Assembly: GCA_964479825.1 (NCBI GenBank)
Contig: CAYZNX010000001.1
Coordinates: 1-43,253 of the forward strand
Direction of reading: 5' to 3'
Length of the DNA: 43,253 nt
Source: an uncultured Planctomycetia bacterium
Lineage (GTDB): Bacteria; Omnitrophota; Gorgyraeia; Gorgyraeales; Gorgyraeaceae
Content: a report on this DNA, generated by a model with database tools, continued
The DNA's letters: not shown here

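Follow-up and report, generated by a model that had tools for sequence, protein, structure and literature searches.

Family relationships of the radical SAM enzymes

The open reading frames of at least 100 aa in the window, 40 in number, tile the forward strand, and most of them overlap or lie less than 40 nt apart. Ten had been picked out in the sequence-only reading by a CX3CX2C motif; our search returned the same ten, with motif strings identical to those quoted. When each protein was shuffled in 1000 trials, the motif arose by chance in a mean of 0.10 and at most 2 ORFs, against the ten observed. All ten proteins (g7, g11, g14, g15, g33, g34, g35, g37, g38 and g40) score above the Pfam gathering threshold of 29.5 bits for the Radical_SAM family PF04055, with values of 30.3–94.3 bits. 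The lowest of these, 30.3 bits for g35, is borderline, and the assignment is backed by a fold match to SpeY (see below). Neither Rfam nor tRNA scans found a match in the window.

Cobalamin-binding-type N-terminal domains had been proposed for three of the proteins, and PF02310 is matched above its cutoff of 32.1 bits by g14 (11846–13720, + strand; 45.4 bits), g15 (13762–15246, + strand; 42.4 bits) and g37 (38037–39527, + strand; 63.3 bits). Each combines B12-binding and radical SAM domains (class B), the architecture of AprD4 and the GenK-type enzymes. The Cys-rich C-termini ascribed to the remaining seven are also present, either as SPASM domains or as conserved cysteines. PF13186 (SPASM, cutoff 21.5 bits) is matched by g7 (36.3 bits), g33 (32.6 bits), g34 (43.2 bits) and g38 (48.5 bits). 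It is not matched by g11, which has four C-terminal cysteines spaced as in g7, and the paralogues g35 and g40 each have four that are invariant in their family. Only g34 has seven C-terminal cysteines, the number required by a two-cluster SPASM domain.

Sugar tailoring would have been called into question had the proteins fallen into characterised non-carbohydrate families, but none of the ten reaches any curated NCBIfam cutoff. The best scores, with the cutoffs in parentheses, are those of g37 against BchE, 205 bits (481), g15 against KedN5, 148 bits (700), g14 against Sden_1168, 109 bits (575), and g7 against a tungsten-cofactor maturase, 96 bits (380). In particular, g14, g15 and g37 do not meet the NCBIfam cutoffs of the class B families BchE, KedN5, PhpK, HpnJ/HpnR, AprD4, MgmA and the TsrM type. 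The NCBIfam scores for DesII, 41 bits (450), BlsE, 39 bits (400), and AprD4, 77 bits (500), are likewise well under the cutoffs.

Comparison with the PDB shows that the nearest relatives of solved structure are mostly sugar- or nucleotide-acting enzymes. The sequence neighbours of g7, g34 and g38 are the sugar-acting BlsE, DesII and BtrN, with BlsE and DesII closest to g7, and g38 ends in a domain that matches the twitch/cluster domain of BtrN with an E-value of 1e-10. The top match of g11 and g33 is the peptide maturase SkfB, and g37 is closer to the protein methyltransferase MgmA (6e-20) than to AprD4 (3e-16). The AlphaFold model of g7 is of low confidence (pLDDT 67.6), and its fold matches to DesII, SuiB and BlsE were treated as weak. 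As judged from sequence, the likeness of g7 and g37 to DesII, BlsE and AprD4 is at the level of the superfamily only.

Cassette A: a radical SAM enzyme beside a split transketolase

The genes g2–g18, which we term cassette A, have their closest matches in Omnitrophota. Most of the cassette is collinear, at 56–80% identity, with a region of the Omnitrophota sequence CP070780.1, a 1.43-Mb replicon in which the cassette lies beside LptD-like and rhamnose-type genes; homologues of g3, g4, g15 and g16 are absent there, and a DegT-type aminotransferase occupies the position of g12. The radical SAM enzyme g7 belongs to a family of more than 5600 clusters (90% identity) at E ≤ 1e-30. Among the 120 matches listed, almost all are exactly 355 aa long and 66–86% identical, and they come from Omnitrophota, Planctomycetota, Brocadiaceae, Elusimicrobia and Actinobacteria.

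A g7-type enzyme and a split transketolase (g8 and g9 in the window) form one block in all six contexts compared. The two are directly adjacent in five of these; in the sixth (L013), a g11-type radical SAM enzyme lies between them. Usually next to this block are a methyltransferase of 220 aa and another radical SAM enzyme. An HldE-like gene is found in five of the six contexts and a SIS gene in three.

The class B genes g14 and g15 have homologues that remain within cassette A contexts, one of which, for g15, is a Magnetococcales locus with six radical SAM enzymes in 22 kb. In the window, the reading frame of g15 is broken by a frameshift within a homopolymeric run of A at about 15.23 kb, and the 57-aa ORF in the 278-nt gap that follows is its frameshifted C-terminus.

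Heptose genes had been claimed for this locus. Genes resembling hldE (g5) and gmhA (g6) are present, but membership of the curated families does not hold up, the scores being 158 bits for HldE (cutoff 521) and 109 bits for GmhA (cutoff 209). The identification of g5 as a genuine HldE and of g6 as a genuine GmhA was rejected on these scores. The domain order is also reversed relative to HldE, and no GmhB-like gene was found in cassette A. Because the scores are so far below the cutoffs and the SIS gene is kept in only half of the contexts, the assignment of cassette A to heptose is uncertain. A heptose-like function for these genes may still apply, since a gene of the heptosyltransferase family Glyco_transf_9 adjoins the cassette in one related locus (L096).

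We propose that the conserved core of cassette A, comprising a radical SAM enzyme, the split transketolase, a methyltransferase and a second radical SAM enzyme, acts on a sugar activated by the HldE/GmhA-like kinase-nucleotidyltransferase, probably a heptose, and that the aminotransferase, the cupin, the B12-dependent enzymes and the methyltransferases may modify this sugar further. The role of the transketolase can be read in two ways. It may supply sedoheptulose-7-phosphate to the GmhA/HldE-like enzymes, in which case an NDP-heptose would be tailored by g7, g11, the methyltransferases, the aminotransferase, the WbuC cupin and the B12-dependent enzymes. Alternatively, the g7-type enzyme may make a keto sugar, which the split transketolase would then branch with a hydroxyacetyl unit. 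The pairing of radical SAM enzyme and transketolase, invariant even where the SIS gene is missing, leads us to lean towards branching, though this is not established.

A two-subunit transketolase within a sugar-tailoring cluster is also a feature of the miharamycin and amipurimycin pathways, where the branching of a keto sugar by a split transketolase has been proposed but not demonstrated, all 13 predicted cases being from Streptomyces. There the candidate for making the keto sugar beside the transketolase is an oxidoreductase; in cassette A it is the g7-type radical SAM enzyme. Unlike those producers, the host of cassette A is an anaerobe, and the plain supply of sedoheptulose-7-phosphate to the GmhA/HldE-like enzymes is not excluded.

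Cassette B and a putative branched-sugar pathway

Homologous loci of both cassettes keep their linkage to sugar-nucleotide genes, the absence of which would have told against the sequence-only reading. For cassette B (g27–g38), the order g29-g30-g31-(g32)-g33-g34-g35-g36-g38 is collinear in seven related loci at 45–90% amino acid identity; in one of them (L008) the g31 phosphatase is missing from an otherwise collinear cassette. The hosts are Saganbacteria, Syntrophus gentianae, a second Syntrophus, MAGs of Deferribacteres, Elusimicrobia and Planctomycetia, and one metagenome contig. The distribution is under-sampled, because our scan of 185,579 representative genomes used strict peptide patterns and returned only 5 loci. 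The third-position GC content of g29–g36 is 0.51–0.54, against 0.31–0.45 elsewhere in the window, forming a sharp island whose composition fits recent horizontal acquisition. The g36/g37/g38 junction is spanned by an independent Logan contig with 100% identity. Upstream of the island, g27 and g28 have homologues within a few kilobases of g29 homologues in five other genomes, as in the window.

The insertion of g37 is particular to the window; in the other loci a B12-dependent radical SAM enzyme at or near that place is absent or only 28% identical. Tandem arrays of g37-like enzymes are frequent. In at least 17 of 42 metagenome loci these enzymes are accompanied by DegT, SDR, NTP-transferase, NeuB or GT2 genes, and some arrays, such as L093 with seven paralogues, have no sugar genes detectable by the probes used.

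The presence of CDP-hexose genes, also claimed previously, is upheld by g27, which scores above the cutoff for glucose-1-phosphate cytidylyltransferase (RfbF). The RfbG-like g28, the NeuB-like synthase g29 and the phosphatase g31, which resembles KdsC and KDN-9-P phosphatase, fall below their equivalog cutoffs. In related loci RfbF scores 413 bits (cutoff 300) and the CDP-glucose 4,6-dehydratase RfbG 480 bits (cutoff 278). RfbH is represented by homologues in six of the seven, two of them scoring 720 and 674 bits (cutoff 423), but none was found in the window, where the acceptor of the YerE-like enzyme may differ or the gene may lie beyond the end of the contig. For g29 the NeuB_NnaB model TIGR03569 gives 239 bits (cutoff 400) and the SAF domain is absent; a role as nonulosonate (NulO) synthase was rejected on both grounds.

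The ThDP carboligase g30 has all three TPP_enzyme domains (N, M and C). Its nearest relative of solved structure is JanthE (8rph; 333 bits, E 2.8e-98), ahead of the best acetohydroxyacid synthase at 279 bits, and every ALS equivalog score is far under its cutoff. JanthE is a YerE-like enzyme (PMC12188165). YerE, ErwE and MMAR_2332 branch CDP-4-keto-3,6-dideoxyglucose for LPS sugars (PMC12247030). YerE places an acetyl unit from pyruvate onto CDP-3,6-dideoxy-4-keto-glucose, giving yersiniose A, while the donors for ErwE and MMAR_2332, on the way to erwiniose and caryophyllose, are longer 2-oxo acids bearing hydroxy groups, such as 4-hydroxy-2-oxo-pentanoate or -hexanoate, ErwE preferring 4-hydroxy-2-oxo acids longer than C4 (PMC12247030).

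In the window, and with varying gene order in the six related loci with a g31 homologue, g29 and g31 adjoin g30. Condensation of PEP with an aldehyde by a NeuB-type synthase yields a 4-hydroxy-2-oxo acid, the class of compound that ErwE prefers. On this basis, g27 and g28 are predicted to produce a CDP-4-keto-6-deoxyhexose, which in the related loci RfbH would convert to a CDP-3,6-dideoxy-4-keto-hexose, and g29 with g31 may provide a 4-hydroxy-2-oxo acid (a 3-deoxy-ulosonic acid) as donor for g30. Decarboxylation of this 2-oxo acid by g30 and transfer of the acyl unit to the 4-keto group of the sugar would give a higher-carbon sugar branched at C4. The three-domain sugar C-methyltransferase g36 would add a methyl group; the SPASM enzymes g33, g34 and g38 and the SpeY-like g35 may carry out radical oxidation, epimerisation or deoxygenation; and g37 may methylate an unactivated carbon. 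The only grounds for taking a NeuB-like product as the donor are the adjacency of the genes and the kind of compound that NeuB enzymes make.

Our preferred reading of cassette B is a branched-sugar pathway of the YerE/ErwE type to which radical SAM tailoring has been added; the gene content and conservation of the cassette are observed and its chemistry is inferred. The cassette has in common with the pathways to yersiniose A, erwiniose and caryophyllose the CDP-glucose genes, the three-domain ThDP enzyme and the surface polysaccharide setting. It differs from them in the NeuB-like synthase and KdsC-like phosphatase that adjoin the ThDP enzyme in every phosphatase-bearing locus (and so not in L008), in its four conserved radical SAM enzymes and C-methyltransferase, joined in some loci by a B12-dependent enzyme, and, in the window itself, in the lack of RfbH. 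Radical SAM enzymes are not known to us from the published YerE-type pathways, although the gene clusters of these pathways were not checked.

Among the cassette B enzymes, g35 has a paralogue, g40, at 29% identity. Both begin with a Rossmann-like domain of some 110 residues bearing invariant GAxxxG and DN motifs. In g35 this domain matches Pfam Methyltransf_14, the C-terminal domain of sugar C-methyltransferases, at 34.6 bits (cutoff 23.5) and PglD_N weakly; precomputed annotations of the family call it C2185-like_N or PglD_N. Such domains help to bind the NDP-sugar in methyltransferases of the TylC3/TcaB9 type and in the PglD/NeuD acetyltransferases. As far as sequence comparison can tell, the g35 family thus joins a radical SAM domain to a domain typical of sugar C-methyltransferases. 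A profile search at E ≤ 1e-30 found 2230 clusters (50% identity) of this two-domain family, the top matches being full length. In g2, with which cassette A begins, this small domain recurs as the fusion partner of an HTH, and the fusion suggests that g2 is a regulator sensing a ligand related to that of g35.

The AlphaFold model of g35 is good (pLDDT 86.6). In a Foldseek search its match to SpeY (7wzv) is far ahead of all others, with an E-value of 1.5e-13, a target TM-score of 0.66 and 24% identity over 260 columns, spanning the radical SAM core and the C-terminal region; phmmer gives 4e-12 for the same pair. SpeY, HygY and BtrN are twitch radical SAM dehydrogenases or epimerases of aminoglycoside pathways, and the resemblance extends to the fold and cysteines of g35 and to the BtrN-like C-terminus of g38. 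The N-terminal domain of g35 and g40 is, however, absent from the 322-aa SpeY chain. Moreover, g35 and g40 lie in CDP-sugar glycan loci of anaerobes and the SpeY-type enzymes in actinomycete antibiotic clusters, and the former presumably act on an NDP-sugar and not on an aminocyclitol glycoside.

Glycan context, alternative explanations and significance

Between the two cassettes lies a six-gene module, g20–g25, encoding NeuB, NeuC, a dehydratase, an aminotransferase, an acetyltransferase and a CMP-synthetase, with no radical SAM gene among them. NeuB (g20) is an equivalog member, with 479 bits for TIGR03569 (cutoff 400) and a SAF domain, and NeuC (g21) also exceeds its equivalog cutoff, in agreement with the nonulosonate genes proposed earlier. 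The gene set resembles those of legionaminic, pseudaminic and neuraminic acid clusters, and we regard the module as a conventional neighbour and not as the novel part of the locus. It is predicted to supply a CMP-nonulosonic acid, whose identity is unresolved because the PseB, PseC and PseF matches fall below cutoff. The four class I methyltransferases and the two types of aminotransferase that had been listed were found again, and the glycosyltransferases, of which two or three had been listed, are a GT2 enzyme (g39) and a TIGR04372 enzyme (g18), which, like the WbuC cupin, is above cutoff. The ABC exporter g19 has HepA, MsbA and PglK-like matches, all under cutoff, and g26 is a membrane protein of 12 segments with no family match in Pfam or NCBIfam. 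Assembly and export of a glycan could be carried out by g18, g39, g26 and g19. Related loci add Wzy_C, large multi-domain GT-TPR proteins, Glyco_transf_9 and PMT-type transferases. Such surroundings speak for a surface glycan rather than a diffusible metabolite, without proving it.

The alternative that we take most seriously, improbable as we judge it, is that the product is a soluble glycosylated secondary metabolite akin to the aminoglycosides, nucleosides or heptose antibiotics. The antibiotic-pathway enzymes SpeY, BlsE, DesII, BtrN and AprD4 are the nearest characterised relatives of several of the radical SAM enzymes, radical SAM sugar chemistry is already established in such pathways, the only proposals for split transketolases concern miharamycin and amipurimycin, and the exporter would suit a secreted product. 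The HldE/GmhA-like genes, with aminotransferases and methyltransferases, are also reminiscent of heptose-antibiotic clusters. What tips the balance is the company these genes keep: a MarR-like regulator of the EPS type, the WbuC cupin and the TIGR04372 glycosyltransferase; the CMP-NulO module, which is complete and in which both NeuB and NeuC pass their cutoffs; the 12-segment membrane protein and the GT2 enzyme; the Wzy_C, giant GT-TPR, Glyco_transf_9 and PMT-type proteins of related loci; and the LptD-like and rhamnose-type neighbours in the Omnitrophota replicon. LPS is, besides, the known setting of YerE-type branching. Scarcely tenable, by comparison, is modification of a lipid or cofactor by the B12-dependent and other radical SAM enzymes through hopanoid-, tetrapyrrole- or phosphonate-type chemistry. 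Although the best NCBIfam matches of g14, g15 and g37 are to P-methyltransferases, KedN5, BchE and HpnJ, these reach only 20–45% of the cutoffs, and a Pfam search of the window found no PEP mutase, squalene-hopene cyclase or tetrapyrrole genes. The g37-like arrays in which the probes detected no sugar genes (such as L093) have to be set against the 17 or more of 42 loci with sugar-gene neighbours and against the retention of g14 and g15 homologues in cassette A contexts, and it was on genomic context that this explanation was rejected. That the SPASM/twitch enzymes are RiPP maturases merely embedded in a sugar locus seems to us the least credible explanation of all. Many weak NCBIfam matches to RiPP maturases, SkfB as the closest solved sequence of g11 and g33, SuiB high among the Foldseek matches of g7 and a weak similarity of g19 to bacteriocin exporters point that way; yet the family scores are all far below cutoff, the largest intergenic gaps (41–278 nt) hold no Cys-rich or otherwise convincing precursor, RRE, leader peptidase and cyclodehydratase domains were not found by Pfam in the window ORFs, and the gene order among the sugar genes is fixed across phyla. 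The lack of a precursor and the sub-cutoff scores led us to reject it.

The density of radical SAM genes might itself be spurious, inflated by a chimeric assembly of unrelated loci or left by a locus in decay, and we hold this to be very unlikely. GC3 changes abruptly at about 30.0 kb and 38.0 kb, g15 is frameshifted, and the genome from which the window comes was not found among the representative genomes scanned. A single-base error in a homopolymer is, however, a common sequencing artefact. A chimera at the GC jump was rejected, one junction, the 4-nt start/stop overlap of g36 and g37, being confirmed by the independent, identical contig. The proximity of g27/g28 homologues to g29 homologues in five other genomes argues the same way, and the g29–g36 island coincides exactly with the conserved cassette, as horizontal transfer predicts. 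The parts are also dense individually, with four radical SAM enzymes in g7–g15 and five in g33–g38.

Overall, we think it probable that the window is a polysaccharide or glycoconjugate super-operon of an uncultivated anaerobe, built of separately mobile modules, in which the radical SAM enzymes tailor nucleotide-activated sugars and not peptides or cofactors. Domain content, exclusion from known families, conserved synteny, horizontal mobility and fold similarity are the direct observations; every substrate and reaction is inferred, no enzyme of this or any homologous locus has been assayed, and for none of the hosts is a glycan structure known. The sequence-only reading is thus supported as regards radical sugar tailoring; its single system gives way to a mosaic of at least two mobile cassettes. 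Nor is the density without parallel, for the Saganbacteria locus has eight radical SAM enzymes in 21 kb.

The constant partners of both cassettes are ThDP-dependent enzymes that form C–C bonds. A more specific model, which we put forward as a speculation more apt to fail than to stand, is that mobile cassettes shared among anaerobes of many phyla pair ThDP carboligation with radical SAM chemistry to make higher-carbon, C-branched sugars. In cassette B a 3-deoxy-ulosonic acid made by the NeuB-like synthase would be joined by the YerE-like enzyme to a CDP-4-keto-deoxyhexose, giving a C–C-linked 'double sugar' that would in turn undergo oxidation, epimerisation, methylation or cyclisation by four radical SAM enzymes; in cassette A the split transketolase would branch a keto sugar formed by a radical SAM dehydrogenase. 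We found no literature describing either cassette, and the only relevant work was that on the ThDP chemistry of YerE-like enzymes; most subscription papers were outside our coverage, and a prior description is not excluded. What is apparently uncharacterised here is the combination of radical SAM sugar tailoring and ThDP sugar branching, each known in itself, in surface-glycan cassettes of anaerobes.

To our knowledge, almost all that is understood of radical SAM sugar chemistry comes from antibiotic pathways of actinomycetes. The present results indicate that such chemistry is also found in portable surface-glycan cassettes that move between distant anaerobic phyla, and the g7 and g35 families drawn into view are large and without assigned function. 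Cassette B is carried by Syntrophus gentianae, a named species whose genome assembly is public and which offers a practical way of testing the prediction. If the pairing of ThDP carboligation and radical SAM chemistry proves true, it would represent a class of surface-glycan monosaccharide and an enzyme logic not yet described: these anaerobes would bear sugars with extensive branching and methylation, which present-day glycomics would fail to recognise, and their enzymes would be new anaerobic catalysts for C–C bond formation and for chemistry at unactivated positions of sugars.

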